A stretch of DNA of 48,590 bases, filler included, from Jimgerdemannia flammicorona (GCA_003990765.1; 2 parts of 2 records of this genome joined end to end with filler, not necessarily neighbours in it); one strand, 5' to 3'; shown: positions 2,254 to 35,824, counted from the first letter of the whole stretch. Numbers and translations: made by a program. Notes: generated by a model from the letters alone, not told the origin.

Positions 2254-3455
2254 TATTGATTTATAGGTTGGAGATTCTTCAGAGTATCTGTAAGAGAGTA
2301 TCTATATTGGCATTGGTTCTTTTAGGATAGTATATGATAGTTATTTATAGGTCTACAACTTCATAATCTATCTAGCATAGATTTCTTTGGATTACTCAGT
2401 GATCAGTAGCTAGGTGAGAGCTGAATGATCTGTCTGGATAGTGAAGTATCTTTTAGTAAGATAGTAGTAGAACTTTTCTATAGTCTAGATAACTGCAAGA
2501 TATTCCAACTTATAAGATTTATATTCTTTTTCAGCTCTGCAGATTCCTTGACTGAAATATATAATGATATATTCTACTTTGTCCTTCTTCTGAGCTAGGA
2601 CTACTCCTAGTTCTTGTATACTTATATCTATCTGTAGAATGAATTCTTGAGTCCAATCAGATCTTCTAAAATGAGTGCTTGGGTCAGTCTGATCTTGAGT
2701 TCATCAAATACTTTTTATTGTCTGCCAGTCTATTGGAACTTGATATCCTTCTTATTGAGTTTGTAGATTAGATCTGCAATATTGGAGAATCCTTTGATAA
2801 ATCTGTAGTAGTATAAGATGAGTCCCATAAAGGCTTGGGCTCTATCTTTCCATATCATAGTAGAAGATTTTGTTCATTATTTTCTGGAAGCTTACTGGTA
2901 TATTGTACATTCTGAATAGCATTTATAGGTAGACATAAGTTTCATCTGGAGTGATGAAGGCTGACTTCTTACTTACTGCTTCTATAAGACTAATTTGATA
3001 GAATTCTGAATATAAATCCAAAGTGCTATAATACTATACTTTATCTTCTAGAGTCACAAGGATATTGCTGATGAGAGGTAGTGGTTGACAATCCTTCTTA
3101 GTAGTCAGATTGAGCTTCCTGTAATCAGTATAGAGTCTTGGAGTGAATTCTTCTAGTTTTCTTTCCTTCTTTAGAGCTAGTACAACCGGTGAAGCCTAAG
3201 GACTGCTGGCTTCTTTAATAATACTGGCTTCTACCATCTGCTTGATTTCTTCTCTAAACCATTCATAGTAGGCTGACAGAATTAGTCTTGCTTTTTGGTA
3301 GATTGGTTTAGTGTCTCCTATATCTATATCATAATAGTAGTATGGGGTTTTTTCTTTGATATCCTTGAAATCTATGGCCAGAATATGTATCCTTAAATTC
3401 ATAGAGTATCTTCTTGAGTTCCTTTTTGAGTAAAAATTCATTTCTAATAATATAG
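2254..3455 (-). pseudogene. Reverse transcriptase/RNase H relic of element A
   Basis: ORF 3196-3441 (DIGDTKPIYQKAR..EASIIKEASSP) matches the B RT N-terminus; downstream sequence collinear with B RT/RH, with an internal deletion. Confidence 0.8.
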
Positions 3456-4948
3456 TATCACATAGTGGTTGTTGAGTCCTTCAAATACACCAGATTCTCT
3501 TCAAGGTGTATCTCTTAGACTAACTCAAGTTGTTATAAGCAAGTTCTTATTGGAGTGCCTTCCCAAGGTCTTATAGTTCTCAAACTTCTTATCTTTAACT
3601 GTCTTGTTATCTCTTAGATTGCTTGTAAGAAAGTGTGTATATTGCACTGAGAGGAACTGACTTTATTTCAGAGGAAATAAGAGAGGTATTTATATAAAAT
3701 ATAATTTAATGGTTGCTAAGATATAAAGCTAAATATAAATTCCAATAACTAAAACTACTAAGTTCCAGGGCTGTCATTATTTAGTATCACATCAAAATAC
3801 CAGTGCTGGAATAATTTTGCATCATCTCAGAATGCCAGTGTTGGCATTATCCAGTATTACATGAGAATACCGGTGCTGGCATTATCCAGTGTAACAAAGA
3901 ACTTAGAGCAGAAAGTTCAGGATTATGGGGGCTTCATCATTATCATCACTGAAGGAGATGAGATCCGCGAATTCGTCATTTTCATATGCTTCGATGTTAT
4001 ATGGGATGATGTCATCGATGATATCATCACATTCAGCTGTGGCGGAGAAATCGGGGACAAGGTCTGGAGCTCTCCAGTCTATGAGGTTCTCTTCCACAAA
4101 ATAAGGAACAAATGTGGGGTCTTGGAGAGATCTAACCTGGATGCTTGGGCCTTGGAATACTGAGATCAATTCTTGCAGGAATTGATCTGGGTTGTCCTGA
4201 AGGATAGGGTGCCAGAAGTCTTCTACTTCTTCGCTGTTGAGGGTGATAGTGGACTGGGCTTCTGTAGCCACCCTGGCTTCTAGTGCATTGATATGGTGGG
4301 ATGATAGGTCTCTGAAATCTGAGACTCTAACATACTCCAAGTTGGGGATCGACCATGGTGCATGCCTGAAGATCTGATGAATCTTCTTAGCTATCCTTGT
4401 TTCGTATATATCCATGGGAGTGGTATCTTGTAGCTCTTGGGTGCTGGCCTGTGGGAACTCCCAGCAGAGGAGGTTTCCTATTTCATACTCCTGTCATATT
4501 TAGAGGTATTCGGTAGTAATGGTGATCCTTGTTTCCATTTTGCAGTGGTAGAGAATAAAGTGATAAGGGTCTGCAGTACCCAGGTTGACACTAGGAGTCC
4601 TTCTTGAGTGGGTCCTCATGGCTCTTCTGATGTCTTGGAACATCCTTTCCTCGACTGAGATACCTTGGTGATTTCTTGACCTTGAGATTTGGCAGGCAGC
4701 AGGCATTTTGTTTGTAGTAAGTCTTTGAGCTATTTTGGGATTAGTGGTTCTTGTTGGTTGCTGCTACTGCGGTTCCTTGATCCTTCTTTTATATTCTTCA
4801 AGATGCTTGTGCTGTGGTCACAATGACTCACAGTTGGTCATCATTGCTCATCTTATATGCTGTATGATCTTCTTGTGCTCCAATCTAGTGGCTTGTAAGG
4901 AAAGGCTGTCTCCTGTGCTGATATCATCATTCTGGAGTCACTGTTATA
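3456..4948 (-). repeat. 3' LTR of element B (1493 bp)
   Basis: Direct repeat of 10646-12137; both termini mutated from TG..CA to TA..TA. Confidence 0.95.
3903..4706 (-). pseudogene. LTR-encoded accessory protein, 267 codons, 3' LTR copy (two nonsense codons near 4493-4502)
   Basis: ORFs 4500-4706 and 3903-4415 share a frame; the stops sit where the 5' LTR copy has Q and W codons. Confidence 0.8.
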
Positions 4949-4958
4949 TCTTCCTCCT
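4949..4958 (-). promoter_or_regulatory. Polypurine tract of element B
   Basis: AGGAGGAAGA on the minus strand immediately before the 3' LTR. Confidence 0.8.
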
Positions 4959-5262
4959 GAATAAGGATCTTCCTGAGCATCCTTATTCATTGGTCTAGTT
5001 CTGAAAAATTTGCTGATCCCATAACCTCTGGCAAGGGGTCAAAAACTGGTATTTATGGGCTAGCATCTTCCCTTTGTATTTTGGCATGATGGTGAAGGGT
5101 CACTCCCTTCATATAGAGCAAGGGCCTGATTCTGATCTTGACCAATCAGTTGACAGTTCGAACTTCTCTGACTGTGAAAGTCTTATGGATGAGTAGTTGC
5201 CAGTACCGTATCCCTTAGAGAATGGTCCAGACAGATAGTCTGCTGGTCACGGGACATGCTGT

Positions 5263-6507
5263 TATGATTTGCGGACTAGAACCTCATGGGCGGTCATCAC
5301 ATTTTGCTTCTCTTGTATAGGTTCGTGGTACTTCTTAAGTCTGTTCCTATGTACCATGGTAGGCAGTATAGTCCCTGAAATTTTTCTAAGCCAGAAGGTA
5401 GTTCCCTTGATATCTTGCACATAGAAGGGTCCTTCTCATTTGGGCTCCAGTTTTCATGACCATGAGGCTTCTATTATATTTTGATACAGTAGAACCTTTT
5501 CTCCAATTCAGATGGGTTCTAGGGCCTTGTGATTCTTTTCCGCATTCTTCCTTATCAGTGCTTGTGACTTAGTGATGTAATCTTCAGCCTTCTTCCTGAT
5601 TTGGTGTAGTTTCCGGATTTCTGCATCAACCCATCTCCAAGTTAGGTCTAGATTTGTAGCTGAGGTTCCATTAGAATCTTCTTCTCTGAAGAGCAGCTCT
5701 CTTGGGGTAAAATGTGTGCTCTGTGACCATATATCTCATAGAATGGAGAGGGTAGTTGGGAGATAGTTATCCCAATTCTCATATGTCTCTGAGATCTTTG
5801 CTAGGATGTTCTTAAGGGTCTTGTTGGTTCTCTCTGTCTGTCCATTTCCTTGAGGGTGGTATGCAGTGGTCTTGATGTGCTGGATCTTGTATTTCTGGTA
5901 TATTATCTTGTGGAATCCATTGACAAATTCTGTGCCATAGTCTGTTGTGATTTGCTTTGGTGTCGTAGTGGCAGATGATTTCTCGGTATAGGAAATTGGC
6001 TATAGAGAGTGCATTGGCTTCTTGTAATGCTCTTGCCTCTATCTATTTGGTGAAGAGGTCTATAATAACTATAATATAGTGGTTTTCTGATAGTGTTACT
6101 GGTAGTGGTCCAATGATATCTATTGCAATGTGGTGGAAGGGGATAGGCTCAATTCTTGACGATCCGGGTGCCTGGTCTTGCTGATCTTGTTTCTGTTTTT
6201 GGCACTTATCACACCCTTTGACAAATTGGCACAGGTCTTCTTCCATCTTGGGCCACCACATGGTTCTTCTTGCCTTATCATATGTGTTGGTTCCTCCTAA
6301 GTATCCTTGCTCATGTACTTCCTTCATTACTTGATACTTCTTGTGTTCAGATATTACTAGCTTTCCTCCTTTTCTGAGTATAGTGTTGTCTAATTCAAAC
6401 TATTTCCAAGTCTGGTTGATGATGGTGATTGTCCAGAGTTTGAGGTGGTTGGGCATCTTCTGCTGCCCAAGGTAGCTGATTAATCCATAGTATAGCTCCT
6501 TATTCAT
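5263..6507 (-). pseudogene. Integrase of element B, separate ORF with its own ATG
   Basis: VHEQGYLGG..WWPKM..CDKCQ zinc finger, IAIDIIGPLP and ITTDYGTEF core, AYHPQGNGQTERTN, EPK*EGPFYV GPY/F motif; a few stops and a frameshift near 5965. Confidence 0.9.
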
Positions 6508-6508
6508 A

Positions 6509-9500
6509 TTAAATAGTCTTGATGGAGATGTTTCGGGGTGTCCTTGAGAGTACATCAGCATTGGTGTTGGTCTTTCCTGGGTGGTGCTTGACAGTACAGT
6601 CATATTCTTGCAGCCTGTAGATCCATCTGACATATATTCCTTTGGGGTTCAGAGTGTGGAATAGCCAGGCAAGAGCGGAATGGTCTGTTTGAATGGTGAA
6701 GTGTTTTCTAGCTAGGTAGTAGTAGAACTTGTCTACTGCCCAAACTACTGCTAAGTATTCAAGCTTGCATGACTTATAGTTCTGTTCTGCTCCATGGATA
6801 CCTTGGCTTGCATAGGAGATAACATATTCATGTCCATCTTTCTTCTGAGCTAGGACTGCTCCAAGTCCTATAGCACTTGCATCTGTCTGCAGGATGTATT
6901 CTAGGTTCCAGTCTGGTCTTCTGAGGATGGGTGCTTGGGTCAACCTGGTCTTGAGTTCATTGAAGATTTCTTGGTACTCCTTGGTCCATTCAAATTTGGT
7001 CTCCTTCTTCAGTAGCTCATAGATAGGTGCTGCAATGTTGGAGTATCCTTTGATGAATCTTCTGTAGTAGCTGGCCAGTCTAAGGAAGGCATAGACTTCT
7101 GTGGTTGTTCTGGGTCTTGGGTAGGCTGCAACAGCCTCAATCTTCATAGGGTCTGTGTGGATTCTGGTCTGGTTGATGAGGTGTCCTAGGTAGGCGATTT
7201 CTTGAGCTGCAAACTTGTATTTCTTGGGCTTGATGTAGAGGCCATACTCCTTAAGCCTCTTAAGGGCTAGCTGTATATGGTTGATATGTTCCCATGCAGT
7301 GTTGCTGAAGATGATCACATCATCAATATAGACAAAGAGCCATTTTCCAATCTCGTTGCTGAAGACTCTGTTCATCATTTGCTGGAAACTTGCTGGGGCA
7401 TTGCACATTCCAAATGACATTCACAGATAGATATAGGTAGCATCAGGTGTGATGAAGGCTGATTTCTCACTAGCATCTTGAGTGAGACTGATCTGATAGA
7501 AGCCTAAGAACAGATTCAAGGTGGTGTAGTATTTAGCTTTGCTTTCAAGGGTGGTAAGGATTTCTTGAATATTCAGCAAGGGCTGCCTATCCTTCTTAGT
7601 GATGGCATTGAGTTTCCTGTAGTCAATGCAGAGTCTTGATGCAAACTCTCCAGACTTGCTTCCTTTCTTCGGGGCAAGGACAATGGGTGAGGCCCAGGGG
7701 CTGATAGCTTGCTTGATGATTCCAGCTTCTTCCATTTCCTTGAGTTCGGCTCACAGCCACTCTCTGTAGGCAGGTGGTATGGGTCTGGCTTTCTGGTAGA
7801 TAGGCTTTGTATCACTAGTATCAACTTTGTGGTGGTACTTGGGTTCTTGATTGTGGATATCCCTAAAGTCTGTAGCAAGTACTCCTTCATTCTGGTACAG
7901 GATCTTGAGAAGTTGTTCCTCTAGGGGAAATTTTTCTCCAATGGTATATGTGTGCTTGTTCTGGTCCTTGTCTTTCTTATGCTCAAGTTCAGTAATCTTG
8001 GTGGCAGCATAGGCTCCTCTTCCAGTAGATCCAAAGCCTTGTTCTCCTCTCTTGGTCTTGATAAGTTCAGTGGCCTCTATGATCTTGGGCTTCTTGATTT
8101 CGTAGATCAGCATCTGGCCAATCCTGTCATGCTTCTTGACTTCGAAGGGGGTGGTGTGATTATGATTTCTGACTATGAGAAAAATCTCACCAGTATAATC
8201 AGGGTCAATTACTCCTCCTTCAACTGAGATTTCGCTTTTGGCCAGACTGCTCCTGATCTTGATAATTCTGGTATAGTTTTCTGGCAGCTTGACTCCAATT
8301 CCAGTACCAAGTAGGGTGGTGGTCTGTAGTTCGAGGGTAGCATCTTGGATGCTGGCAAGGTCCATTATTATGGCTCCTTCAGTCTTGTATTCTGGGATCT
8401 TGGCTTCAGGGTGAAACTTCTTGATCTTGAGGATGATGTCTGATTCTTGTTCCTCCTCATCATCACTGTCAGCTTGAAGCTCTGGGGGCTGGTCATCTTC
8501 TTCAGCTTTCCTTTTTGCTTCGGCAGCTTCTTGCTCATATTTCTGTTGGCAGATTTTCCTGACTTCGCTGATACAGGACCAGCAGTCATTCAGGTGTTCG
8601 GAGCAGTACATTCTAGTACCATGGGGGCATCTTCCTTGAGGGGCATACCCATCGATGATCTTGTTATACCACTGCTCATCTGTGAGCTTGGGTGTCTTGT
8701 TCTTGTTCTTGTTCACTGAGTGCATGAAGACCTCTGTGTCTTCTTCATCTCCTTTCTCCATGTCTGACAGGACTCCTTTGTGGACATTGATAGAAACTCG
8801 TACCTTTCTTCCTCTGTAGTTGATCTGCATCTTCTGGGCATTGAGGTCAATGATGGCCTTGGCCTTGTGAAGCCATTGGTTGCCAATGAAGATGTCATAG
8901 TTGGTGGTGCTTGTAACAATCATGTCTACTGGGATGGTAGCTCCTCCTATCTTAATGGGGACTTCTCAGATTTTGCCAAGGGGGGTAGCTCATATACCAT
9001 CTGCTGTGACATAGATCATCTTGGTGGACTCTTCAATATCCCAACCTAGGCAGTCAATTGCCTTCTTGCTCATGAGGCATCCTCCAGCACCAGTATCAAT
9101 GATGGTATCAAAGATACAGTCTTTGATCTGGCAGAGGGTATAGGCTGATGTCTTACACTGGTCTTCGGATTCTTCATCTGAGTTCTCAGATTCTTCTTGT
9201 GCATTGTAAGCTTCTACAATCTTGTACTCTTGATTCTTGACAATAGTTGCAAGTCCTACTCTCAACTGCTGTCTGAAGGCAGAGACTTCAGCTAGCTGCC
9301 CAAAAGTGGCATTGACCTTCTGTTCCTTAAGGTCCTTATAGATGTCATACTGGTGGATCTTGGTCTTGTACAGCTTCTGTTCCTTCTTGCTCTCACTTTC
9401 TCCTGAGACTGGAGTAGTGCCTTCAATAATTTGGTAGGCAGCTTTATCTAACTCTATGTCTTGATCAATCTCCTCATTTTGGGTCTTGCTTTGAATAGTG

Positions 9501-10525
9501 ACAGTTGAAATCTTCTTTGGTCTTCCAACTGGCTTGCTGTTGCTCTTCTTGTCATAGGGCTTGGACCAGGTTCTGGTACCTTCAGTAGCAGGGTAGAATT
9601 CAAGCTCCTCATAGTATTCTTCATCATCAGTGTCACTGATCTCCTCGATGACTACTGTATTAGTTTGTTCTCTGGTTCTGCTAGCATTGCTTGGTTGGGC
9701 TTTGTGTCTCGTTTTGGTCATGCAAATCTTTGCATAGTGGCCTTCTTCTCTACATCTAAAGCATGTGATATTGCATTCTTCTGTAGCAGCTGCAAATCTC
9801 TGTACTGGTCTCCTGTTGACACTTTGGACTTCTCTAATAACATCACCAAGGTGTACAGTCATCTTGGTGAACTGCTTGGCAAGTTCTTCCACTGGGTCAG
9901 CTTTGGCTATCTTGGGGGTAGGTGGGGTTGGTTGTCTGTTTACAACTGTGGTAGGTAAGATACTAGTTGGCTTTGATGGCTCCATTTTTATGCCAGTTAT
10001 TTTCTCCATTGAGTGTTCGGCAGGGTGTCTGGCAGTCCAATATCTCTGTACAAAGACCACTTTCTGATCAAGGGTCAGTATAGCTGGGGTAGACCGAATT
10101 GCTAGGGCAATTTCAGGGTGAACTCCTTTGAGGAAGGTTGAATCTGCTATTTGTTCCTTGAGGTGGTCATCATAGCCAGCCAAGACAATCTGGTGACAGA
10201 TTCAGGTATAGAATGAGTTGGGATCTTCACTAAGTCTCTGGCAGATAGTATTGAGTTGATCCTTGAGAGCTTGCTTGATCTCTTTAGTATAATATGTTGT
10301 TCTAAGGAAGGCCTTCATATTGGCAAGTTTGGCTGCACTAGCATCAACAATGGTGGCTGCATTGAACTTGTCTCTAGCAGATCCTCTGAGACTGACTGGT
10401 AGAAGGGCCAATTGAGCATCCACACCAAGGGCTCATATAGTAGTGAATTGTTCAAAGTCTTCAATGAAGGTCAGGATTGACTCTTCAGTAGTATATTCAT
10501 AGAATGTAGGGGGGTGCATTTCCAT
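6509..10525 (-). pseudogene. gag-PR-dUTPase-RT-RNase H polyprotein of element B, one reading frame broken by nonsense codons
   Basis: ORFs beginning at 10423, 10183, 8923, 7735 and 7420 share a frame; motifs CFRCREEGHYAKIC, IIDTGAG, dUTPase motifs, RLCIDYRKLN, YIDD, TDAS, TDHSAL, NADVLSR. Confidence 0.93.
8020..8430 (-). other. dUTPase domain in element B pol
   Basis: Trimeric dUTPase motifs RSSLA, GGVIDPDYTGEI, RIGQ, RGEQGFGSTG. Confidence 0.93.
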
Positions 10526-10624
10526 TTTATCTTGAATTCTTGCAGAGGTGACTCTTGTAGTCAGGGTAGTTGTTGTGGGGGTTGTTTGTTTTTCAGCTTG
10601 AAAGTGAGGGATTCATCTTAAATC

Positions 10625-10642
10625 ACCAGTCAATGGGCACCA
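10625..10642 (-). promoter_or_regulatory. Primer-binding-site-like motif of element B
   Basis: TGGTGCCCATTGACTGGT begins 3 nt after the LTR end; conserved in D (from 15968) and degenerate in A. tRNA identity not determined. Confidence 0.65.
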
Positions 10643-10645
10643 AGT

Positions 10646-12137
10646 TGTCACATAGTGGTCACTGAGTCCTTCAAATACACCAGATTCTCTTCAAGGTGTA
10701 TCCCTTAGACTAACTCAAGTTGTTATAAGCAAGTTCTTATTGGAGTGCCTTTCCAAGGTCTTATAGTTCTCAAACTTCTTATCTTTAACTGTCTTGTTAT
10801 CTCTTAGATTGCTTGTAAGAAAGTGTGTGTATTGCACTGAGAGGAACTGACTTTATTTCAGAGGAAATAAGAGAGGTATTTATACAAAATATAATTCAAT
10901 GGTTGCTAAGATATAAAGCTAAATATAAATTCCAATAACTAAAACTACTAAGTTCTAGGGCTGGCATTATTTAGTATCACATCAAAATACTGGTGCTGGA
11001 ACAATTTTGCGTCACCTTAGAATGCCGGTGCTGGCATTATCCAGTGTTACATAAGAATACCGGTACTGGCATTATCTAGTGTAACAAAGAACTTAGAGCA
11101 GAAAGTTCAGGATTATGGGGGCTTCATCATCATCATCACTGAAGGAGATGAGATCCACGAATTTGCCATTTTCGCGTGCTTCAATGTTATGCAGGATGAT
11201 ATCATCAATGATGTCATCATGTTCGGCTGTGGCAGGGAAATCGGGGACAAGGTCTGGAGCTCTCCAGTCTATGAGGTTCTCTTCCACAAAATAAGGAACA
11301 AATGTGGGGTCTTGGGGAGATCTAACCTGGATGCTTGGGCCTTGGAATACTGAGATCAATCCTTGCAGGAATTGATCTGGGTTATCCTGAAGAATAGAGT
11401 GCCAGAAGTCTTCTACTTCTTCACTGTTGAGGGTGATAGTGGACTGGGCTTCTGTAGCCACTCTGGCTTCTAGTGCATTGATACGGTAGATGATAGGTCT
11501 CTGAAATCTGAGACTCTAACATACTCCAAGTTGGAGATTGACTATGGTACATGCCTGAAGATCTGATGAATCTTCTTAGCTGTCCTTGTTTCGTGTATAT
11601 CCATGGGAGTGACATCTTGTAGCTCTTGGGTGCTGGCCTGTGGGAACTCCCGGCAGAGGAGGTTTTCTATTTCATACTCCTGCCACATTTGGAGACATTC
11701 GGTAGCAATGGTGATTCTTGTTTCCATTTCATGGTGGTAGAGGATAAAGTGATAAGGGTCTGCAGTACCCAGGTTGACACTAGGAGTCCTTCTTGAGTGG
11801 GTCCTCATGGCTCTTCTGATGTCTTGGAACATCCTTTCCTTGACTGAGATACCTTGGTGATTCCTTGACCTTGAGGTTTGGTGGGCAGCAGGCATTTTAT
11901 TTGTGGTAAGTCTTTGAGCTATTTTGGGATTGGTGGTTCTTGTTGGTTGCTGCTACTGTGGTTCCTTGATCCTTCTTTTATATTTTTCAAGATGCTTGTA
12001 CTGTGGTCACAATGACTCACAGTTGGTCATCATTGCTCATCTCGTATGCCGTATGATCTTCTTGGGCTCCAATCTGGTGGCTTGTAAGGAAAGGCTGTCT
12101 CCTGTACTGATGTCATCATTCTGGGGTCACTGTTACA
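10646..12137 (-). repeat. 5' LTR of element B (1492 bp)
   Basis: Minus-strand TGTAAC...GTGACA termini; TATAAATA at 10877-10884, AATAAA at 10852-10857, ~33-bp tandem repeats at ~10960-11085. Confidence 0.95.
11093..11895 (-). pseudogene. LTR-encoded accessory protein, 5' LTR copy (stop at 11542-11544 and 1-bp deletion near 11490)
   Basis: ORFs 11542-11895 and 11093-11461; 803 bp versus 804 bp in the other LTR. Confidence 0.8.
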
Positions 12138-14640
12138 ATAGCTATACTTGTTTGTAATTTCCTCCTTCTTGTGGTCTAGTTCAGTAATCTTGATACTGGT
12201 GAATACTCTTCTTCCTATAGATCTAAATCTCTTCCTTCCTCTCTCTGTTTTCTTAAACTTTTTGACTTCTATGATCTTTAGTTGAAGAACTGGAAAGATT
12301 AATATCTGTATCAGTCAATTCTTCTTCTTAATTGGAAATAAAATTATAGAGTTATGGTTTTTAGTAATAAGTAGTATTTCTCTGATATAATCTGAATCAA
12401 TGACTTCTCCTTCAATAGTAATCTCACTCTTGGCCAGGCTACTTCTTGTCTTGAGGATTCTGATATGATTTTTTGGAATAGTTATCTTCAGACTAATTGT
12501 AAGTAGAGTAGTTATCTGGGACTCAAATATGTTTTCTTCTTTATAGTAATATCTATTCTAGCTACATTCTCTGACTTATATACTGATAGAACTATATTAG
12601 AGTGGATTTTCTGAATCTTGACCTTGATTTCTTCTTCATCCTCACTATCTTCTAAAAGAACCAGTAATTTATCATTTTCTTCCTTCTTCTTCTCTTCTCT
12701 TGTCTATTTTTCAAGGGCCTTCTGTCTTCTTTCATAGTAGATCTTCTTATTGTATTTATACACTGATAGTAATTATTAATATACTTCATACAGTATATCT
12801 TGATTCTATACAGACTTCTTGTGATATATATCCTTCAATGATTCTCTTATACCAGTCTTCTTTACTAATCCATTCAACTTTCTTCTTCTTTTTTTGAGTA
12901 GTCACTATAGGCTTCTTCTTGCTCACTTTCTTCTTTCTCCATTTCAGAGAGTACTTCTTTGTTAACATTAATGGAAATCTGCATCTTCTGTCCTCAGTAG
13001 ATAATTTACATCTTCTGAGCATTCAGATTAATTATTGCTCTGGCTTTATGAAGTCATTGGTTGCTGATAAGGATATTATAGTTGATTGCATTAGTTACAA
13101 TAATATCTACTGAGATAGTTACTCCTTCAAACTTAATAGAGACATCTCAGATCTTTCTCAGAGGTATGGCTCTTATACTATCTACTGTGATAAATACCAA
13201 CTTGGTTGCTTCTTCAACCTCCCAACCTAGGCAGTCTGCTACTTTCTTGCTGAGAAGACATCCTCCTACTCTAGTATCAATGATGACCTTAAAGATTCTA
13301 TCTTCAAATTGACAGGTTGTATAGACAGAGGTCTTATAATTATCTTTACTTTCTTTTCCTAAGTCTTCTTGAACATTGTTAGCCTCAGTTATCTTCCAAC
13401 CTTACTTCTTAGTTATCTCAGTAAGTCTATATCATATTTACTATCTGAATGTGGAGATTTCCACAAGCTGACCAAAGGTTGCATTGATCTTTTATTAACT
13501 GAGGTTCTTGAAGATATCGTACTTGAAAGTTTTGGTCTTACAAAGCTTCTTCTTCTTTTCTCCTTTACTAGCTGGAGTAGTTCTTCAAATGATATCTTGG
13601 ATAGTCTGTTCTAACTCTATATCTTGATTCATTTCTTTAGCTTGGCTTTCTATAGCAGTCTCCATCTGTTTCTCTACTAGATTCTTCTTGGGTCTTTCTG
13701 GTGATCTCTTGTAGAGTTCCTTATAAAAATCTTTCTTAGTAGTCTATATAAGATAGACCTCTTATTATTCTTTATCTGATTCTTCAATCTCTTTGAAAGT
13801 GATAGTATTGACCATTTTCTTATTCCAAGTAGTATTGCTTAGCTGTACCTAGTACTTAATTTTACTCATATATTTATATAAGTATTAATCTTCTTCTCTA
13901 CAAATATAGCAGATATCTCTCTTTTTGTCTAAGGTGGTGATAAACTTCTGAACTAGATGGTAATCTTTTTCTCTGATTTCTTTTACTATATCTCCTAGGG
14001 TCACTATTTCTTTACTACTTAGTAGCTCTTAGTTGAGGTATATTTCAATTGATCACTATGTTAGAGATTATACTAATTGCCTTAAGTGCTTCAATTTTAA
14101 CTCCAGTGACTCTTTTTATTATATAGTCTTGTAGATATCCAACTATCTAGTATCACTAGATATAGATAACCTTCTGTACCAGATCCAGGACTATTGGTGA
14201 TAAGCAGATAGCTATGACTATCTTTGGGTAGACTCTCTTCATAAAGATTATCTTAACTACTTGATCTCTAATTATAGTATCATAATCTGCAAGAATTATC
14301 TAATATTGAATTCTGATGTAGAATATATTTAGATACCCACTCATTTCTTGATATATTGTATTGAGCTGATTCTTCAGAGCTTACTTAATCTTATCTATAT
14401 AGTAGGTGGCTCTAAGCCAGGCCTTCTATACTATCAGCACTGTATCATTATCATTTCCTATATGGATTATAGCTGTAAATACTGCTCTTGCTGAGTCTTG
14501 GAGACTGAAGAGCATAAGGACTACTTACTGCCTTGCTGTCAGAGTTCTTATAGTAGTATATTACTTGAAATTATCAATAAAAGTGATAATTGATTCATCT
14601 AAAGTATATCTGTGGAATACTGATGGTCTCATATCTATCT
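12138..14640 (-). pseudogene. gag-protease-dUTPase relic of element A
   Basis: KVIIDTRVGGCLL (protease) and RSSLAKSEITIEGEVIDSDY (dUTPase, ~12205-12625), collinear with B; many stops. Confidence 0.8.
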
Positions 14641-14752
14641 TATTTAAATATCTTAGTTTGATTTATATAGTTATTCAGATAGTAGCAGTTATTCATTATT
14701 TAGTTTAAAAGTAAGAAATTTGCTTTGAATTACCAGATAATGAGTACTAAGT

Positions 14753-15030
14753 TATAATATAGCAGATACATAACTGTGTAAGTATATTAAATTTCTATAT
14801 CTTGAAAACTTGATCTTCTTTAACTCTATAGAGTCCTTGGAATATAGGAGTGGGTGAGTTCAAAGTATATCTATCTACAGGCTTATTAGTTCTCTTACTT
14901 TCTCTTTACTTTGAACTATTTTGATCTGAGGTTTATTTATTCTAGATACTGGAGATATTTATATAAGTTTGCTAGCTACATATAAGGTGACTAAGTTATG
15001 ACTATATTTTCTGTAAGTTACTTTTTATAC
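14753..15030 (-). repeat. 5' LTR of element A, truncated
   Basis: Matches 124-390; followed on the minus strand by a degenerate copy of the B PBS region. Confidence 0.75.
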
Positions 15031-15300
15031 TTAGACTTCTACTTTATTATTCCATTCTATATTATATTAATACAAAGGTATGGATATATCCTTTACTCAA
15101 TCTCATATGAAACCTCCTCTCTCTTCCTCTTTCCACCTCTCCAGAGAGTTCTCAACTCCCTAGCAACCCCAACCCTCTCTCTACTCTTTCTGCAAATATA
15201 CTTCACAAGTCTCCTATAGATTCTCCCTTCAGATGTCTACCCCTACTACTAACTATTCAGAATATCTAGTAATAGTCACTCCTATCTTACAACTTATACC
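15030..15300 (-). mobile_element. Probable 3'-end fragment of a LINE
   Basis: Starts TTAGACTTCTACTTTATTA, similar to the LINE 3' ends at ~29920 and (inverted) ~36925; weak. Confidence 0.35.
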
Positions 15301-16096
15301 CTAAGTGCTAAATACTGACCATCCTCAAATATATAAAGTCAATATATGTGAAATGCATGACCTATATAATAAGATGGATGAAACATTCATAGATCTCATC
15401 TTCTTCAGCAATAATGAAGATGAAGCCCCTATAGTCCTGAACATTCTACTTTAAAGTTCTGGATGATACCAAATTCTGCCAGTATTCTTTTCTCATATAA
15501 TAGTTAATTCTTCCACTGGTATTCTGCTTCTGTATGACTCAGAATTCTTCCAGTATTCTTTTCCTATACTACTGAATTCTATCAGTATTCTGAACTTATA
15601 CAACTATCTATATCAATACTGGAATCTATACTAACAACTATAGTTTTCTATATTTCAGTATTTTATTTAGTTATTGGAATTTATATTTAGCTTATATCTT
15701 AGCAACCATTGAATTATATTTTATATAAATACCCCTCTTATTTCCTTGGAAATAAAGTCAGTCCTCTCAGTATAATTCATACAATTTCTTGCAAGCAATC
15801 TAAAGAGATAACAAGACAGTTTAAAGATAAGAAGTTTGAAAACTATAAGACCTTGGAAAGGTACTTTAATAAGAACTTGTTTATAACAAACTTGAGTTAG
15901 TTTAAGAGATATACCTTGAAGAGAATCTGATATATTTAAAGGACTCAGCAACTACTACATGATAACTTGGTGCCCATTGGCTGGTGATTCAAGATGAATC
16001 CCTCACTTTCAAGCTAAAAAACAAATAACTACTACAATAACTACTCTGACTACAAGAGTCACCTCTGCAAGAATTCAAAATAAGATGGAAATATAT
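15300..16096 (+). mobile_element. Element D: partial LTR, PBS and gag start of a B-family element, interrupted by element C
   Basis: DLIFFSNNEDEAPIVLNILL* matches the B LTR-ORF end; 15660-16096 is the reverse complement of B ~10515-10950; LTR ends at 15964. Confidence 0.85.
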
Positions 16097-16228
16097 TGTG
16101 ACGTACACAATTGACAATGGAGTACTGGTGACTGCTAAGATCAGACGACATAATGGTGTGACAATCAAATAGACAGCCTGACCTATTAGGTGATCATCCC
16201 AAAAGAAGACAAGATGATCTGAGCCAAA

Positions 16229-17289
16229 ATGAAGACCACGTTATTTAAGGAACCATACTCCGCCTCAGGAATCAGCACCAAAGAACCAAGTACCCACCAC
16301 ACAATACCTCCCATTTGCCAAACCAACCAGACCTCCCACCACTCTACCCCTTTGCCTGGCCCAAAGACCCTGATCTTTGAAGCTATCAAGAAGGCCATCT
16401 GGCGCCCGGATACTTCTGAACACTTGAACTTCTATACTGAGGACCTTGGATACTTCATCAACTACTGGTATATAATGACCCAACAGCTCAAAGATACTAC
16501 TGAACGAATGACCCTCTGGCATGACTATGAAATCGGACACCGCCTCCGCAATGAGACTCAAGAAGACGACCAGGAAGACCTCATTGCCGAAATGTTAACC
16601 ACCAGCCAGCTAATCAAGAGAGCCCTCCGTGTCCATCAAATCTTCCGCCATATCCCCTGGGCTATAGCACACTTGCAAGGAGTAACAGCTGGCAGCCTCT
16701 CCCGCCTTTCAACTGAAGATGCTGACTGGATAGAATCTGAAGTAGCCAATGCTATTGGCAGCAACTGCATCACCATAGGAAGCCAACAAACCGAACCTAC
16801 TCAGCCAGGTTTCCACACTACCCCACTCCGAGACAACCATCAAGGTCACCTAATGAGTCTTATGGAGATATTTGAAGGACCGCCCATCACTATAGAGACA
16901 CCTGTTGGAGCTACCCCAACCACCCACCACCTGTCAGCCACAATTCACACCTCATCATTTGGGAACCAAATCAAGAAGAAGCCCAAGAAGTTCCTGTCTT
17001 TGAAGAGGAGGCCCAAGAACTCCAAGACCCTGCCCCTGAAGAAACCCCCTCTGACATTAAAACTGACGAGCCTTCAGAAGAAGAAGAGGAGCAACAGAGA
17101 GTCTATCAGTCCTCTGTCCGCATTCAAGCTGTTCAAGGGTTGGAGAATGTTGTTGAAGATGACTGGCCACTTTTCTACCCCCTCACCTCTTGGCCGGCGC
17201 TTCCCCCCTTTGAGGAGAGATATGATGAAGAAGAAATCACAACCCAGCAAGATTTGCCTGCCACGGACAAAGGGTACTATTTCCTCTAG
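16229..17289 (+). pseudogene. LTR-encoded accessory protein of element C (frameshift near 16920-16945)
   Basis: N-terminal ~235 aa homologous to the B LTR ORF; the acidic tail NSHLIIWEPNQEE..KGYYFL* continues in another frame to TAG 17287-17289. Confidence 0.75.
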
Positions 17290-17319
17290 AGTACCGCCCA
17301 TCAGCTATGAGAACCCAGC

Positions 17320-17560
17320 TTTTGTCAGCAAGTCCGTTTCCAGCATTGCTACCCAGTACCACCATTTTCAGCATTTTGTCAGCAGATCCGAATTCAGCAT
17401 TGCCACCCTCCACAACTGTTTCTGGCAACAATCATTGTATCATGTCAGCTCATCCGAATTCAGTGTTGCTACCCAGCACAACTATTTTCAGCATTGCTAT
17501 CCAGTGTCGCCATTTTCAGCGTTTTGTCAGCAAGTCCGAATCTAGCGTTGCTATCCCCTA
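17320..17560 (+). repeat. Tandem ~55-65 bp repeats in LTR C
   Basis: Repeated TTTTGTCAGCA(A)GTCCGAATTCAGCATTGCTACCC units. Confidence 0.8.
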
Positions 17561-17859
17561 CAACCCAATCTGTAGTAAACAATAGCCTGTATCTTGCATC
17601 GTGCAAACCAATAGCATAAGTTCGCCACAATGTAGTATACCTTAGCCTTAGTCATACCCCCTCTCCCATAGCTAGCAAACTTGTATAAATAACCCATATT
17701 CTTAGAGTGAATAAACCTCAGTCAACTGGTTTTGAGAAATAACCACTGCCTCCAAGAGACCGGATAAATTCTGAGAACAAGATAACTAGAGCAACGATCG
17801 CTCAAGGTTTGAGTTAAAGAATTTTCTCTTGCCATGGAAAGAAAGAAAACATTACAAGA

Positions 17860-18115
17860 ACCGCCGCCATTCAAGACCCAAGACCCAGCCAAGGATTCAA
17901 GGCTATGACCACTGCCATTCGACCGCCGCCATTCGAGACCTGAGACCCAGCCAAGGATCAAAGAACCCAAGGAATCCAAGTTACCCAGCCAAGGATTCAA
18001 GACACAACCGCCATGCATTCAGACTGCCATTCGGACCTCCATGCATTCGACTGCCATTCGAGATTCAAGACCCGGAAGACCCAGAAACCCAAGGATACCC
18101 AGCCAAACAAGACCA
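17860..18115 (+). repeat. Second degenerate tandem array in LTR C
   Basis: Repeated ACCGCCATTC(A/G)AGACCC and CCCAGCCAAGGATTCAAG modules. Confidence 0.7.
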
Positions 18116-18572
18116 TAGCCTAAGACCCTCCAAGATACTCGAATGACCGCCAAAGACCCAAGTTATCCTGCCCTTTCAAGCTAAACAAGATGGACGAGTG
18201 AACCGTCAACCTCCATTTTTCCCGACCTACTGTGCCACGAACCACTTAAAGTCAAGACTGTCGCCCACTTTAATTGACCGCATAAAGAGCAAGACCATCA
18301 AGACCGTCGCCACCAAGTTATTCACCACCTTTTTCTACTGGATATTGAGCCATTGAACAATCAAACAACCTCATCTACTAAACAATTGAGCTATCATCGA
18401 ACGAACTCCTGCTATCAAATATCACACGAATCGAACAAGCCGATCACGTGACCATCGACCTGTAACTGCCGCGAACGTCATCAATGCATTCAGTTATCCA
18501 TCACGTGCTTCACCAGTGGCACACATTGAGCCGTGCAGTCGAAGTTCATTATACATAATCAATGCCACATTT

Positions 18573-18590: not shown

Positions 18591-18803
18591 AGTTTTCAAA
18601 AGACTTGACCATTTTGCTCAAGAACCCAGCTATCTACAGTAGAGAACTTAGCAGGACCAAGTCAGCAACCAAACCAGGGGCAGCAACAGCCCTCCTCAGC
18701 AGAAAAGAAAGCCCACACCCTTGTCAGGACAGTAGCCAGGACCCTATTAAATACCAGTAGCCAGAAAACCAAATCAGAAGAAAGAAGTGACCCAGATTAC
18801 GGT

Positions 18804-21800
18804 TTGACTTCAAGAGAAAGGAGACGACTCAGAGGACAACCAGAACCACCCCTTCAGATCCAAGACTTAGGCCAAGAAGAAGAAGAGGATATCCCCAAGG
18901 AGTATCAGACCTTTATCCATAGGAAGAACTCAGACAGAAGCAACTACATAACTACTGTTGTCACTCGAGTCACTCCACTAGACCGAGTATACTTTGAAAC
19001 ATCAGAAGGAGAAGAGGACTATCATCCATATCAACCAGAACAAGACGACGATTGGGGATCAGACCATCAAAGGAATGAATTCAACCTATACTATTATCCA
19101 GACAGTGACACTGACCCACAGCAGCAACCAGATGAACCAGACCTCACTACTTCACAACAGCAAGGGGCAGACGAACTCACTATCAGTTATATCAGTCCAC
19201 TCCCACCATTAGTTGCCCGAACTTCAGTACCCTAGTCACTCACACCTCGCCACTATCACCAGTCAATCAGAAGATCTCCACCACTACTCAGAACTTCAAC
19301 CCCAGCATTAATTAGAAGAGCCAGATTACCCTCACCCTTACCAAGACACCACCCTCTGCCAGCACCACTAGTTCATCAAGTACTAGCACCACCACCTTTC
19401 CTATCACCCTGAGGATCCGTCAGATCCCCTACCCCTGAACAATACTCAGATAGTGAAGATGAGCCAGACATGAGCTACCTTCAGAAGTTCCATGGTGCAG
19501 ACAATGAAGACATCGAGGAATTCTTTGGAGAAATTGAAGTTCAAGCAGCCGCCAAACAATGGGATGCTGCAAGAAAACTCAGAATTGTGGAGTCACTCCT
19601 GAGAGGACCAGCCCTACAGAGGTATAATCAAGCCAAGCAAGCCAGAGGAGGAATCCATACAGAGGAACTGAATGATGGCCTTCAACCTGATAGGAACCAT
19701 GTAGCAAGGTACATGATTCATAAAGCCTGGCTCCGTGCCCAGTTCAATGGATTCGAGTGCCAACAAGAAGCACAGGAGGCTTTGACCTATATGAGCCAAG
19801 CCGCCAATGAAACCCCTAAGAGTTTCTATCATCAGATTCAAGCTCAAATAATCAAGGTGAACCTTCAACCAGCAGTCCAACTGGCCCTAGCCTCAACTAC
19901 CTTCCTCAATGGCTTATACCTAGAACTCCAAAGGCAAGTTATCAGGATGGGATATCGAAACATTGAACAGCAAGTTGCTGGAGCACAAGGATGTTGGGAA
20001 GCAGATTATAGACCAGTACAACAAGTATAAGGCTATCCTGAGCCAATCCGAGCTGAAACCCTAAGGACCAGAGGAACAACTATGGAGCAAGAGAATGCCT
20101 TCCTCAGAGCCCAGATAGCCAACTATGAGAACAGACCAGCACCCACAAATCCGACTCCATTCAGACAACCACAGCAGCAGCCACCATCAAGAGTTCAAGA
20201 AGACCCTATGACAACACTCACCAAGCAAATGAAGGACCTGGCCATTGCGGTTGCTCAGCTGAACAACCAAGGTAGAAGACAATAAGACTACCATCATGAT
20301 AACAGACCAGACTACTGGCACCAAGACAACAGAGGTCCTGCCCCCACACCACCAGCTGCAACTATAGCCTCATCAGCAACTAGTTCCTATAGTCCCACCT
20401 GCTTCAGCTGTGGAAATCAAGGCCACATCCAGAGGAATTGTCCAAGGAACCAATCCACCCAGTCCAATGACAGAAATGTCAACCTCTTTCAGGTAGATGA
20501 AGAGACTCAGGAAATGGAAGAAGAAGCAGCCTGGCTCCATGGTCAAGAAGATGACATCTACCCATACTTCGAGGCTTTTCCATCCAAGGTGACATGGGAA
20601 GCTGCCCCAGCAGAGACCAGAGGACGAGGAAGACCACGAAGGAACCCCCCACCTCAACTGCCAGTAATGGTATCCACCGGCAAGCATCCACGACATGGCC
20701 ATTCTTCTTCAGACACTCCACAAGAACAGGAGAAGCGAGCTAGAAGAGATACTCCTGAACCAGAAGCCGGACCATCTAGGACAACCCCCAGCTCTACTCT
20801 GCCAGACTATGAAGAAGATGAGCGTATGAGCATAGAATCTTCAGCTGATGAAATGCCCATCAGGAATGAGAGACTACACCCCAAGGGACCAAGACACCGA
20901 AGAAGCAGCAAGCCCCATGCAGCAGCCTCACTTTGGGAACATATCCGCCTACAGAATGCTGGTCTTACAGTTGAGCAAGTCCTCAAGAATGCACCAGAGG
21001 TCAGGCGAAAATTCCTGAAAGAAGCCAAGGAAGATACCAAGAGACTTCCAGTCCAAGGACCATACACTCAAGAACCTAGCACTATCCATACAGTCCATGA
21101 GAGCCAGCAACATGAACATCAATCTACAAGACTCGCCGATGGAAAAGTGTATGGTGAAAATGCCAGAATTCTTATCGATACTGGAGCAGCAGTATGCATC
21201 ATCACCCAAAGGATGTTGGAGCGAATTGGATGGGGAATAGATAAAGGAACCAAAGCAAGAGTTATCATGGCCAATGGATCAGCTTCCACACCCCTTGGAC
21301 TTGTCAGAGGCATCCCCATTCAAGTTGGAAAGGCCTGCCTCAATGTACCCAAAGCCATCATGACCCCCGCAACCTCCTATGACCTGATCCTGGGGACTGA
21401 CTGGTTAAGCCAAGTTGGAGCCAATGTAGATATCAAGAAATAACTCCTGGTCTTCTCCATTCATGGACAGAAGCACAAGGTGCCCATTGACTCGAAAGGA
21501 TCATCAAAAAAGACAAATCAAGCCTCAGAAACAGAATGGCAAGGACATGGTGACACCCCTACCACTACTGAGAATGAAAGCGAGGCCAATTTCCTACAAG
21601 AACTAGGAAGTGATTTCGATGCCCCAAGGGACCAAGAAAGTGAACAAGAAGACTCTTTCATTGGAGTTATTGGTGTTGAAGGCCTGGAAGAAACCATTGA
21701 TAGAGCCATTAATGCAAGGACAGCACTTGAGTTTGCAGGACCTTCTGCTCAACCACCACCACCACTGGTAGAAAATCAGATCATGCGAGCCTTTCATCAA

Positions 21801-24250
21801 GGCATATGCGAACACTTCATCAGCTTCCACTCACTAAGAGATGATTGCAGCAATTGCCGAATCCTGGATCTCAAGAAGATTCCAATGCCAGAAATTGATG
21901 ACAAGGACGAATTGAAGCAAGCACCATCCCACAGCCGAATGCAACCTCCAACCCCGAAGACCTTCAAGAAGACCTATAAGGAAGGACAGAAGATCCTCGC
22001 CTGCCAAACATTCGAGTCCCTTACCATCGAAGGAGAAAGCAACAGCTCTTACACCATCACTCGGGCCCTCCAGATCACACAGCTCACCTATGACAAGTAT
22101 TGGAAGAGATTCCCTACCAGTAGGGAGGTCAAACAGCGAAATGAAGACTTCATCAAGAAGGGACATTGTGATTGTGAAAAAACCTTTACCTGCTACTAGT
22201 GTGAACATCGAGATATTCACCTCAGCGAAGATGTCTACAAGAGCCGAGTCAAGAGAAAGGATCCCGCCCTGCAAGAACCTTGAATTCGCTGGGCCTGTCG
22301 GAAGTGCAAAGAAATCAACCATGAAGGAGACTGCAAGTTCAAGAGCAAGACCTCTATCTGGGACCTACCATTGGAAGTTCTTGCCATCATTTGCTGGTAC
22401 TGCCACCCTCATCAAGGAAACGAAGGTATCAATCTTGCCTTCATCCTTATGGAAGCTCTGGACCCTCTAGGAAAGACTGGATTCAATTATACAAGAAACT
22501 CAAAGACAGGAGCTCACTGGCCTTTCTTCAAACTGGAGCGCATAGACTTCTCACCTACACTGGCAACAGCTGAGGCGCTATTTCTCAAAGCTCAACCAAT
22601 TATCCAGGTCAAGCTGCTTTTACCCTGGGCACAGCCACCTCTTGCACAAACAGAAGGATCAGTTGGTTATGACCTCTGCCTCACCTACCAAGCAAGAATC
22701 TGGCCCAGAAGTACCAGGACTTTTGACCTACAGATTGCACTCGCTATACCACCTGGGCATTATGGACAGTTGGCCTCAAGATCCTCATTGGCAACCAAAG
22801 GAGTCACAGTAGAAGGAGGAGTCATCGATCAGGACTACCAAGGTCCCTTGAAGGTCATCATCCGCAATTCTAGTAGAACCTGCCGATTCTTCAGTCCTAT
22901 GGAAGTCATCTGCCAAATTCTGTTTATCAAGACATCACAGCTGACCATCCAAGAGATAGATCAACTAGAAGATACCAATAGAGGACAAGGAGGCTTTGGA
23001 AGCACCAATAGAAATATATGGACACCACCTATCGAGGTTCATTTGGCAACAGTTGCTCAATTCCGACAAATGAGACCCCATATCTGCTGCCCAATCTGAG
23101 CAAGAGAAGACATCCCCCTGCAGCCCTACCAGCAAAAAGGCCTAGATATGCATCTATCAGTAGAAGCAAACAACTTGATATTTGCACTATTACTGGAGCT
23201 TCAAAAGGAATACCACATCCTCCTGGCTGAAGAACGAATTCATGACCAGATGTCACCAATCTACATCCCTATCAGAAACTCAGGCTTCAAAGTGATAACT
23301 ATCCCCAAGGGAACAACACTGGGATATTTCAAACCACTGATAGACACCTACGAGGAAGAAGTCTTCGAATTCTTGGGAAATGGCAAGCCCTCTCCGGTCA
23401 GACTGACGGTACCAGGGAGGAAGACTCAGCAAATTCAGCAATCAAAGCCATCAACATCGAGACAACTCTAACCAAGGACCAGCAACAACAAATACAGGAG
23501 TTGATAGAGGAGTACAAAGATATATTTACCACCACATACGATAACTTCCCACCATATCAATACGGAGAACACCCTATACATACTGGAGATGCAAGACCAA
23601 TCTGACAATGACCCTACCGAACACCACATCATCTGATTGAATTCGAACAACAATACATAGACGAAATGCTACGAAATGGAGTCATCAGACCATCATCAAG
23701 CCCCTGGGCCTCACCAGCAATCATAGTACCAAAGAAAGGAGGATGGAGATTAGTCGTAGATTTCAGAAAACTCAACAAAGTCACCACAGAAGATGCCTAC
23801 CCACTGCCAAGAATTGATGACCTCATCAATGCTCTTGGAAAAGCCAAATACATGACCACTACCGACCAGTTCCAAGGATTCCAAGTAATACCCATTGCCA
23901 AAGAAGATATCTGCAAGGCGGCCTTCATCACCAGACGAGGACAGTATGAATACCTACAAATGCCCTTTGGACTCTGCAATACACCCGCCTCATTCCAACG
24001 AATGATGAACTATGTCTACCAGGACCTCATTGGAAGAAATGTACTAGTGTACATAGATGATGTAATCATCTACTCTGAGACATTCGAGCAGCATTTGCAA
24101 GACCTCCGTGAAGTATTCAATACCATTTGAAATTCAGGACTCAGACTCAATGCCAAGAAGTGCTTCTTTGGAAAACATCAAGTCAAATATCTGGGATATG
24201 TTGTCTCAGCTCAAGGAACACATGCCGACCCCTGCAAGGTGGAGAAAGTC
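18804..24250 (+). pseudogene. gag-PR-Cys-rich-dUTPase-RT polyprotein of element C
   Basis: ORFs starting 18804, 19470, 20082, 20514, 21480, 22371 and 23148 share a frame; motifs CFSCGNQGHIQRNC, ILIDTGA, DLILGTDWL, dUTPase; frameshift near 23400; RT SPWASP, VDFRKLN, MPFGL, YIDD. Confidence 0.92.
22605..23010 (+). other. dUTPase domain in element C pol
   Basis: GSVGYDL, SRSSLA, GGVIDQDYQG, ICQ, RGQGGFGST. Confidence 0.93.
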
Positions 24251-24350
24251 NNNNNNNNNNNNNNNNNNNNNNNNNNNNNNNNNNNNNNNNNNNNTTAATT
24301 AATTAANNNNNNNNNNNNNNNNNNNNNNNNNNNNNNNNNNNNNNNNNNNN
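24251..24350. other. Assembly gap with artificial stop linker
   Basis: N run with TTAATTAATTAA at 24295-24306. Confidence 0.97.
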
Positions 24351-32900: not shown

Positions 32901-33634
32901 CCAGGCCCATCCCCACTTCTCCCAAAGTACCCCTGTCCCAAAAGGCCCCAGTAATCTGACCATAGGCACCACTCCACTTTCAGTGACTTCCAAACATCTC
33001 AGCCCCAGCAGCTGGCTATCAGAATCCAGTTGATCCTAGTCCCCAGGCCCCCAGCCCAATGTGTATAAACCCTCCTATCCCCCCAGTACTCCCTACCAGT
33101 ATCCACCAGTGCACTGAGTCTTTCTACTTCCTCCCACATTGCCAGTCCCCCACTCCTGCTCTCAGCACCCCATCCTCCATCTGTTCTATCCATCAGTATA
33201 TCCCGAACTATATTGAAATCTCCCCTAAGCATATCCACCCCAGCTTCTGCAAGAATCACACTCTCCTGGAGACCCTTCACCCAATCTATATACTCACTCC
33301 ATACAGTAGGGCAGTAACAGGAGCTAACTGTAACTGGCTCTCAGCCTGCATGAATCCACTCACCCCAGACCAGCCTCTCTCCCCAGCTCCTCATATCGCT
33401 TAACTCCCCTCTGCCCTTCCAAACCAGAATTCCAACCTTGCCTTTCCAAATTGCCATGCCTCCCCATTCCTTTGTCCATTCTATCCTATCAGAATCATCC
33501 TCACACCTGACATCCTGCAAGAGGAAGAGATCAGCCTCCAATTCCTTCAGCTAAGTAAAAATGTTCCTATGTCTAACAGTACCCCATAGCCCATTCACAT
33601 TCAAAGAAAAAATGTTGGTTATACTGTTCATCAT
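29960..33634 (-). pseudogene. LINE ORF2: APE endonuclease, reverse transcriptase, C-terminal Cys/His motif
   Basis: SLNVNGL, LLQD, RGDFN, TRINWIL; APGEDGLP, LDQEKAYD, GVPQGDPLSP, FVDN (degenerate YADD), YLGI; C-terminal PEHWLEEC. 3' limit approximate. Confidence 0.9.
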
Positions 33635-33649
33635 GAAATACATTTTGTT

Positions 33650-35685: not shown

Positions 35686-35824
35686 GTTGTTAGTCTCTTT
35701 TCTCCAAAAACAATGTTATAAGTGTCTTCCAAAGGTTGTATAACCTGAATAGTACTGATATTATATATTTTATCAATAAAATTGCCTCTTCCTCTTATAA
35801 GGATATATATGAATATATACAATA

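Follow-up and report, generated by a model that had tools for sequence, protein, structure and literature searches.

A conserved protein-coding gene inside the long terminal repeat of a dUTPase-bearing fungal Ty3/Gypsy lineage

Complex retroviruses carry coding sequence in the U3 (unique 3') region of their long terminal repeats (LTRs): sag of mouse mammary tumour virus (MMTV), the overlapping part of nef in human and simian immunodeficiency viruses (HIV/SIV), and the bel region of foamy viruses. To our knowledge, a protein gene inside an LTR is otherwise known from these viruses and not from retrotransposons. The additional open reading frames (aORFs) of LTR retrotransposons, as the searched text of two sources describes them, occupy the interior of the element, in most cases the stretch from pol to the 3' LTR (PMC7264820, PMC6431247), and brtn of Boty lies there in antisense, according to the searched passages (PMC7264820, PMC6431247, PMC8365987). 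A dUTPase is recorded in fungal Gypsy elements, including Tmt1 of Tuber, in the searched part of PMC2864245, and truffle Gypsy clades are described without mention of ORFs in the searched text of PMC12581995. Literature phrase searches, whose scope stopped short of the primary brtn and Tmt1 descriptions and of the element drawings in PMC8365987 and PMC12581995, returned no report of a conserved ORF inside a retrotransposon LTR. Here we analyse a 48,590-nt stretch of DNA (the window) made of two filler-joined contigs of Jimgerdemannia flammicorona (GCA_003990765.1). Wholly within the first contig, we found that a dUTPase-bearing fungal Ty3/Gypsy lineage carries a protein gene of 267 to ~340 codons entirely inside its LTR, in sense orientation, between the LTR 5' end and a core of TATA box and polyadenylation (poly(A)) signal.

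The gene is seen most directly in element B (3456-12137, minus strand). Its LTRs, a CTAT target duplication, a polypurine tract (PPT), a primer-binding site (PBS) and a gag/pol interior together identify B as a complete Ty3/Gypsy insertion. The 4-bp duplication lies at 12138-12141, before the 5' LTR, and at 3452-3455, after the 3' LTR. The 5' LTR (1492 nt, 12137 to 10646) begins TGTAACAG and ends TGTGACA, followed by ACT and then the PBS TGGTGCCCATTGACTGG (10626-10642, minus strand), which begins TGGTGCCC. The 3' LTR (1493 nt, 4948 to 3456) directly follows the PPT AGGAGGAAGA (4949-4958, minus strand) and has TA..TA ends where the 5' copy has TG..CA. Between the LTRs (4959-10625, minus strand), Pfam matches mark gag with a CCHC motif, protease, dUTPase, reverse transcriptase (RT), RNase H and integrase, with several frame breaks; the pol order protease-RT-RNase H-integrase is that of Ty3/Gypsy elements, and the dUTPase domain lies between protease and RT (7754-8965, minus strand, E 1e-25). 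By blastn the two LTRs are 93.8% identical over 1489 nt (3458-4946 versus 10648-12135), differing by 93 substitutions (91 transitions, 2 transversions) and one 1-nt indel. Changes are commonest at CpG (10 of 56 sites) and CpA (21 of 283), with zero counted at CpT. This is a cytosine-deamination pattern or one like that of repeat-induced point mutation (RIP), mixed and unlike classical CpA-only RIP.

Both of these 1.49-kb repeats contain the ORF, roughly at LTR positions 240-1045, which sets it apart from the internal aORFs. In the 3' LTR it runs on the minus strand from 4706 to 3906, 267 codons followed by a stop at 3903-3905, and is interrupted by two in-frame stops (4500-4502 and 4494-4496) at which the 5' copy reads Q and W. 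The 5' copy (11895 to 11093, minus strand) is instead frameshifted by a single 1-nt deletion near 11490. An earlier interpretation of this DNA by a model (the sequence-only reading) had described a 267-codon ORF with different lesions in each B LTR, in sense orientation upstream of a TATA/AATAAA core, and our coordinates bear out both statements: the core (3662-3694, minus strand), with TATAAATA at 3687-3694 and AATAAA at 3662-3667, lies downstream of the sense-oriented ORF. About 80 nt before the ORF ATG stands a TATA-like sequence, TATAAAAG (4786-4793, minus strand), a candidate promoter. Antisense open frames overlap the ORF in both B LTRs, at 3762-4163 (plus strand, 133 codons) and 11021-11353 (plus strand, 110 codons).

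The order of ORF followed by core recurs in element D, in element C and in a metagenome contig, L001. Element D (15353-16092, plus strand) retains the 3' part of a B-like LTR with the last 33 ORF codons (15353-15451, tblastn E 3e-6), the core, a PBS, a leader and the gag ATG (16086), in keeping with the earlier statement that D keeps the ORF C-terminus; it is cut there by the insertion of C. Contigs from one sequencing run extend past 16092 into sequence matching B gag (2 records, median 110 nt), and another contig matches the window from 16091 onward with an unrelated upstream flank. These contigs indicate that C inserted into D, with the C 5' end within 16091-16098. Contig L001 (1345 nt) presents TATAAAAG, an intact 323-codon ORF, TATAAATA and AATAAA in the order seen in B.

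Element C is a more divergent relative, and the window holds only one of its LTRs because the contig ends at 24250. Its 5' LTR (16098-18566, plus strand) starts within 16091-16098 (TGTGAC; TGTGACG at 16098), and its 3' end is uncertain, with PBS-like strings near 18513 and 18568. The C ORF occupies 16304-17289 (plus strand), and the core follows at 17684-17715 (plus strand), with TATAAATA at 17684-17691 and AATAAA at 17710-17715. The internal region (18609-24250, plus strand) shows Pfam matches to gag (CCHC), protease, dUTPase and the start of RT, in the same order as B as far as RT start, and stops at the contig end; its dUTPase domain again lies between protease and RT (22284-23096, plus strand, E 1.8e-28). 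Because the C ORF lies between the element 5' end and a core that aligns with the LTR core of B and D, we infer that it, too, is located within the LTR. Thus the earlier claim of a gene inside the LTR holds by direct observation for B, where both repeats contain it, whereas for C it follows from position. Downstream of the C ORF and core, at 17290-18150, other copies vary in length, with contigs skipping 64-225 nt at several joints; this segment contains repeats of degenerate sequence as well as a tandem repeat of 28 nt (18007-18060).

The C and B proteins are homologous. BLASTP aligned them with E values of 2e-13 (32 of 93 residues identical, 34%) and 9e-10 (28 of 99, 28%), and tblastn with E 2.2e-15 over 204 amino acids. 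The homolog described by the sequence-only reading is therefore significant, but the C copy in the window is broken. Its start codon (16304-16306) is ATA, where other copies have ATG (G in all three covering runs, one contig each), and its frame changes after 16929, where other copies have an extra C. Three of four runs cover this site, and the additional base appears throughout the depth of two of them and in 70 of 193 depth units in the third. In intact relatives the frame continues uninterrupted here.

Element A delimits the ORF as a module. B is nested in A, an older relative that has mutated heavily and shares 66-69% DNA identity with it in pol. The A 5' LTR (~284 nt, 15036 to 14753, minus strand), followed by a decayed B-type PBS, and the A 3' LTR (~270 nt, 393 to 124, minus strand) agree with C and L001 in their termini and in the promoter core. 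They begin TGTGAAAAGTGAC, as do the LTRs of C and B, and their core, CTTAGTCAT...TAGCTAGCAAACTTATATAAATA...AAATAAACCTCAG, lies ~45 nt from the LTR start. Neither LTR carries the ORF module, and we found no ORF traces in A, either with the family profile over window ORFs or by relaxed tblastn outside the known copies, which gave only E >= 0.62. The ORF module thus sits between the LTR 5' end and the core and can be absent. Since TATAAATA is the sole TATA box in A's short LTR, and so the sole promoter candidate in an LTR of this type, the ORF would belong to U3 and not to the repeat (R) region.

We next consider how widely the family is spread. Word-indexed protein searches returned seven clusters (57-85% identity) among 51 candidates for the B query and one cluster (P0001, 82% identity, 6 members) among 202 candidates for the C query. 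A profile search of 1,835,955,588 representatives yielded 11 proteins at E <= 0.001, six of them at E <= 1e-10, and added the more distant members P0015, P0016, P0019 and P0021. Intact relatives comprise 271 (P0009), 325 (P0001), 331 (P0006) and 342 (P0016) amino acids, alongside the 323 codons of the L001 ORF. Full-length members start MPA or MPP and members of the B branch end in LNFLL-like residues; start and end motifs are common to at least five sub-lineages. Close copies also occur in contigs from runs labelled soil metagenome, and in X1, 174 of 1233 contigs were at least 99% alike. Scanning metagenomes with the family alignment gave 593 pattern matches and none confirmed in a first pass, and a single contig, L001, in a second; among viral contigs, 82 pattern matches included none that could be confirmed. 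A search for longer or fused forms of the protein gave 0 of 7848 candidates at E <= 0.001, and neither this search nor the 1.84 billion-representative profile search revealed a host paralog.

Comparison of B with L001 points to a protein under purifying selection. Over 264 codons, the 3' LTR copy of B and L001 differ at proportions of 0.686 for synonymous (pS) and 0.263 for nonsynonymous (pN) sites, giving an omega (dN/dS) of 0.175 that is approximate because dS is near saturation. Differences by codon position 1/2/3 number 89/61/128, and the signal is specific to the frame: pN/pS is 0.384 in frame and 0.99 and 1.38 with the alignment shifted by one or two bases. Within the ORF, pN/pS is lower in the core (0.32) than in the tail (0.67). 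The strongest single item for selection is that the 323-codon L001 frame is intact at 57% amino-acid identity to B and a pS of 0.69. The LTR copies of B itself, which diverged after insertion, gave values based on few changes, 0.88 for the N-terminal part and 0.34 for the C-terminal part. Between B and C, the ORF is 28-34% identical over ~200 amino acids, similar to dUTPase (34.5%) and below RT (42-54%); it is better conserved than gag, of which only a 36-amino-acid patch aligns. An omega of ~0.18 together with the frame-specific signal argues for purifying selection on the protein. The selected protein that the sequence-only reading had proposed, against which a dN/dS near 1 would have counted, is supported.

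The encoded protein belongs to no described family. Pfam assigned no family to any ORF piece or full-length member; over 14 members, four unrelated families each matched one of the 14, with a best E of 0.026. A PDB sequence-profile search gave no matches at E <= 10. The family profile, run against 1119 window ORFs with gag and pol included, matched LTR ORFs only, and neither it nor Pfam yielded a gag, pol or host-gene match. A gag duplication was considered as an origin of the ORF and rejected on this profile result and on relaxed tblastn, which elsewhere gave only E >= 0.62. AlphaFold2 produced an unusable model with 11 sequences (pLDDT, the predicted local accuracy score, 38.8) and one with a mean pLDDT of 65.8 and a predicted TM-score (pTM) of 0.56 with 14 sequences; in the latter, residues 50-165 form an all-helical core (pLDDT 74-92) and the tail is disordered. 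With this 14-sequence model, Foldseek found no matches at E <= 0.001 in PDB (best E 0.71) or in BFVD (best E 0.063), and VIA-align over 48,161 chains found none at Z >= 5 (best 3.5). In the ESM Atlas the best feature score was 0.83 and TM was at most 0.33, both below the tool's thresholds. Such an absence of fold neighbours does not show that the modelled fold is new. These searches agree with the sequence-only reading, which had not recognised the family and had placed the protein outside env: six members contain no membrane segment, the highest 19-residue Kyte-Doolittle mean being 1.09, so the signal peptide or transmembrane segment of an env-like protein is not apparent.

Charge is distributed unevenly along the protein. 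Net charge in five full-length members runs from +1 to +8 over the first 45 residues and from -17 to -26 over the last third; in the distant member P0019 the values are -2 and -10. An acidic tail and a basic N-terminus thus occur in five of six members, and Pfam and fold searches found no known DNA-binding domain. By its composition the protein might be a nuclear regulator, its acidic tail resembling an activation region.

The gene can be set against described systems. Like the aORFs of LTR retrotransposons such as Athila and Bagy2 (env-like), Grande, RIRE2 and Retand (antisense) and Ogre (ORF1), it is an extra conserved ORF of unknown function without a host paralog in whole Ty3/Gypsy families; its conservation extends over B, D, C, L001 and the database relatives. 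Those aORFs are internal in the searched text of PMC7264820 and PMC6431247, whereas the present ORF lies inside the LTR, where it exists in duplicate and would outlast the reduction of an element to a solo LTR, and it has no membrane segment. The brtn gene of Boty-like elements in Botrytis and Sclerotinia likewise adds a gene without an assigned function to a fungal Gypsy element, but the searched descriptions, on whose layout the comparison is based, make it antisense and internal, and the present ORF is sense and inside the LTR. Tmt1 of Tuber and elements of Phanerochaete and Postia share the dUTPase between protease and RT (PMC2864245, searched part); in the searched text, secondary in the case of Tmt1, no LTR-borne ORF is reported for these dUTPase-bearing fungal elements.

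There is a positional parallel with retroviral sag, nef and bel, which are U3 coding sequences downstream of the PPT, in sense orientation, with accessory and not structural products. The present ORF is preceded by the PPT and followed by TATAAATA/AATAAA, and its U3 status relies on the promoter deduced from element A. It differs in its fungal host and the lack of env, in having no detected sequence or fold similarity to these proteins (Pfam, PDB sequence, Foldseek against PDB and BFVD), and in an expression route that may use a promoter within the LTR rather than splicing. Together, these results confirm that the LTR contains an accessory gene under selection and distinct from env; its expression route and function are matters of interpretation.

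The observations are best explained jointly, with a probability of about 0.6, by a selected U3 accessory gene that has its own upstream TATA promoter, uses the LTR poly(A) signal and encodes a trans-acting nuclear regulator. If TATAAATA is the promoter of genomic RNA, as element A implies, the ORF would lie in U3. The gene is present twice per element, since reverse transcription places a copy of U3 at each end. Ribosomes that scan genomic RNA cannot translate an ORF so close to its 3' terminus, and a separate mRNA would be needed. B and L001 have in common TATAAAAG and the start context ACAAACAAAATGCC, with ACAAAC(A)AAATGCC at the ORF start of both; C has an upstream box, TATTTAAG, 55 nt before its ORF start. 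No ATG occurs between the upstream box and the ORF start in any of the three lineages read (B, C and L001). A conserved box with the ORF ATG as the next ATG favours an mRNA that starts at this TATA-like box near the LTR 5' end and is polyadenylated at the LTR's AATAAA. The sequence-only reading had expected expression from the 3' LTR copy; the layout suggests instead a dedicated promoter in every LTR. On this view every LTR, be it 5', 3' or solo, would amount to a gene complete in itself and ~1.1 kb long. More weakly, the product, with its basic N-terminus, helical core and acidic-hydrophobic tail, may be a nuclear regulator acting in trans on expression of its own element, activating the core promoter or countering host silencing. 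We speculate that the plus-strand priming site moved upstream of a former ORF between pol and the LTR, bringing the gene into U3. A fuller version of this picture is tentative, and we hold it as possible without favouring it: LTRs would be autonomous genes, solo LTRs included, whose trans-acting nuclear protein switches on the core promoter or blunts silencing of the cytosine-methylation or RIP type, with A-like relatives depending on it in trans.

Other arrangements of the transcripts have to be weighed. The ORF could have no promoter of its own and be expressed only from the 3' LTR, through a spliced or subgenomic derivative of genomic RNA. This is the known route for the U3-overlapping genes of complex retroviruses, such as MMTV sag and HIV nef, and it suits an ORF that comes last in the genomic RNA as predicted; a TATA-like box followed by the ORF ATG as the next ATG in all three lineages would be needless under splicing, and we regard this route as unlikely. 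The roles of the two TATA-like sequences could also be reversed, TATAAAAG being the sole promoter and TATAAATA/AATAAA only a poly(A) signal. The ORF would then come first in genomic RNA, within an R region of ~1.1 kb, and whether ORF mRNA or genomic RNA is made would depend on the 5' poly(A) site being used or bypassed. Conservation of the upstream TATA box accords with such a long R, as does the resemblance of TATAAATA plus AATAAA to fungal poly(A) signals (a TATATA-like sequence plus AATAAA), a resemblance that also weakens our own assignment of TATAAATA as a promoter. Under this arrangement, however, the LTR of A, which has the core, ~45 nt upstream of it and no other TATA, would be promoterless, and strong-stop DNA of ~1.3 kb would probably be unusual; we consider it very doubtful.

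The nature of the product allows further readings. The gene may be real and its protein a particle-associated or integration-targeting factor, a chaperone or tether, instead of a regulator of expression. Accessory ORFs of LTR elements have been proposed as chaperones in the searched text of PMC7264820, and the basic N-terminus could bind nucleic acid; the protein has no similarity to window gag or integrase, and Pfam found neither a zinc knuckle nor a chromodomain in it, which makes such a role distinctly improbable in our view. Last, the ORF might not be a working gene at all, but a decaying captured host fragment or a frame kept by DNA-level constraint on U3. That every copy in the window is broken, that the family is tiny (11 representatives in 1.84 billion) and that A does without the ORF would fit. 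We give this very little credence, given the frame-specific excess of synonymous differences between B and L001, the frame of L001 that has stayed open despite its divergence, the motifs held in common by the sub-lineages, and database searches that found no host paralog or longer fused form.

Several observations weigh against the selected, self-promoted regulatory gene that we favour. All three ORF copies in the window (B 3', B 5' and C) are broken, and the intactness of the database relatives is biased evidence, as database proteins are open by construction. L001 is too short to show a terminal repeat, and the second LTR of C is outside the window, so that no repeat shows the C ORF in an LTR. 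The upstream box of C is an imperfect TATA. LTR structure does not require the gene, as the ORF-free LTRs of A indicate, and elements may do without it or be supplied with it in trans. The proposed function is read from composition, with no DNA-binding or other known domain found, and the near-saturated dS bears on the selection estimate as stated above.

The remainder of the window is a landscape of nested fungal transposons, in which younger copies (GC 0.42-0.50) take turns with decayed, AT-rich DNA (GC 0.24-0.33). At 24251-24350, two 44-N runs surround TTAATTAATTAA, a six-frame-stop linker, which identifies the window as two artificially joined contigs and C as cut in RT by a contig end. 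The second contig contains direct repeats of ~1.2 kb that are 80% alike (24353-25533 versus 42692-43860), with a further stretch at 38034-38506; the pair are probably the LTRs of another decayed element, and the family profile found no ORF homolog in any of the three. The block 30000-36000 has a strong C skew and includes an RVT_1 (reverse transcriptase) ORF (31244-32317, minus strand, E 5.7e-28) of a different retroelement. The sole host gene recognised in the window encodes a GH72 glucanosyltransferase with an X8 domain (45992-47846, minus strand), split over three frames, probably by introns; this glucanosyltransferase family is typical of fungi.

A selected gene in an LTR changes what an LTR can be, as such a gene is duplicated in each element and would persist in solo LTRs. 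Thousands of repeats taken for 'dead' could in this way become copies of a trans-acting factor. The locus also suggests a simple route to retroelement complexity, in which a downstream ORF could come to lie in U3 when the plus-strand priming site shifts. If the LTRs are truly autonomous genes, fungal retrotransposons would have their own counterpart to the regulatory genes of complex retroviruses; and should the protein prove to regulate the element or to counter genome defence, it would offer a new handle on the inflation of transposon-rich fungal genomes.

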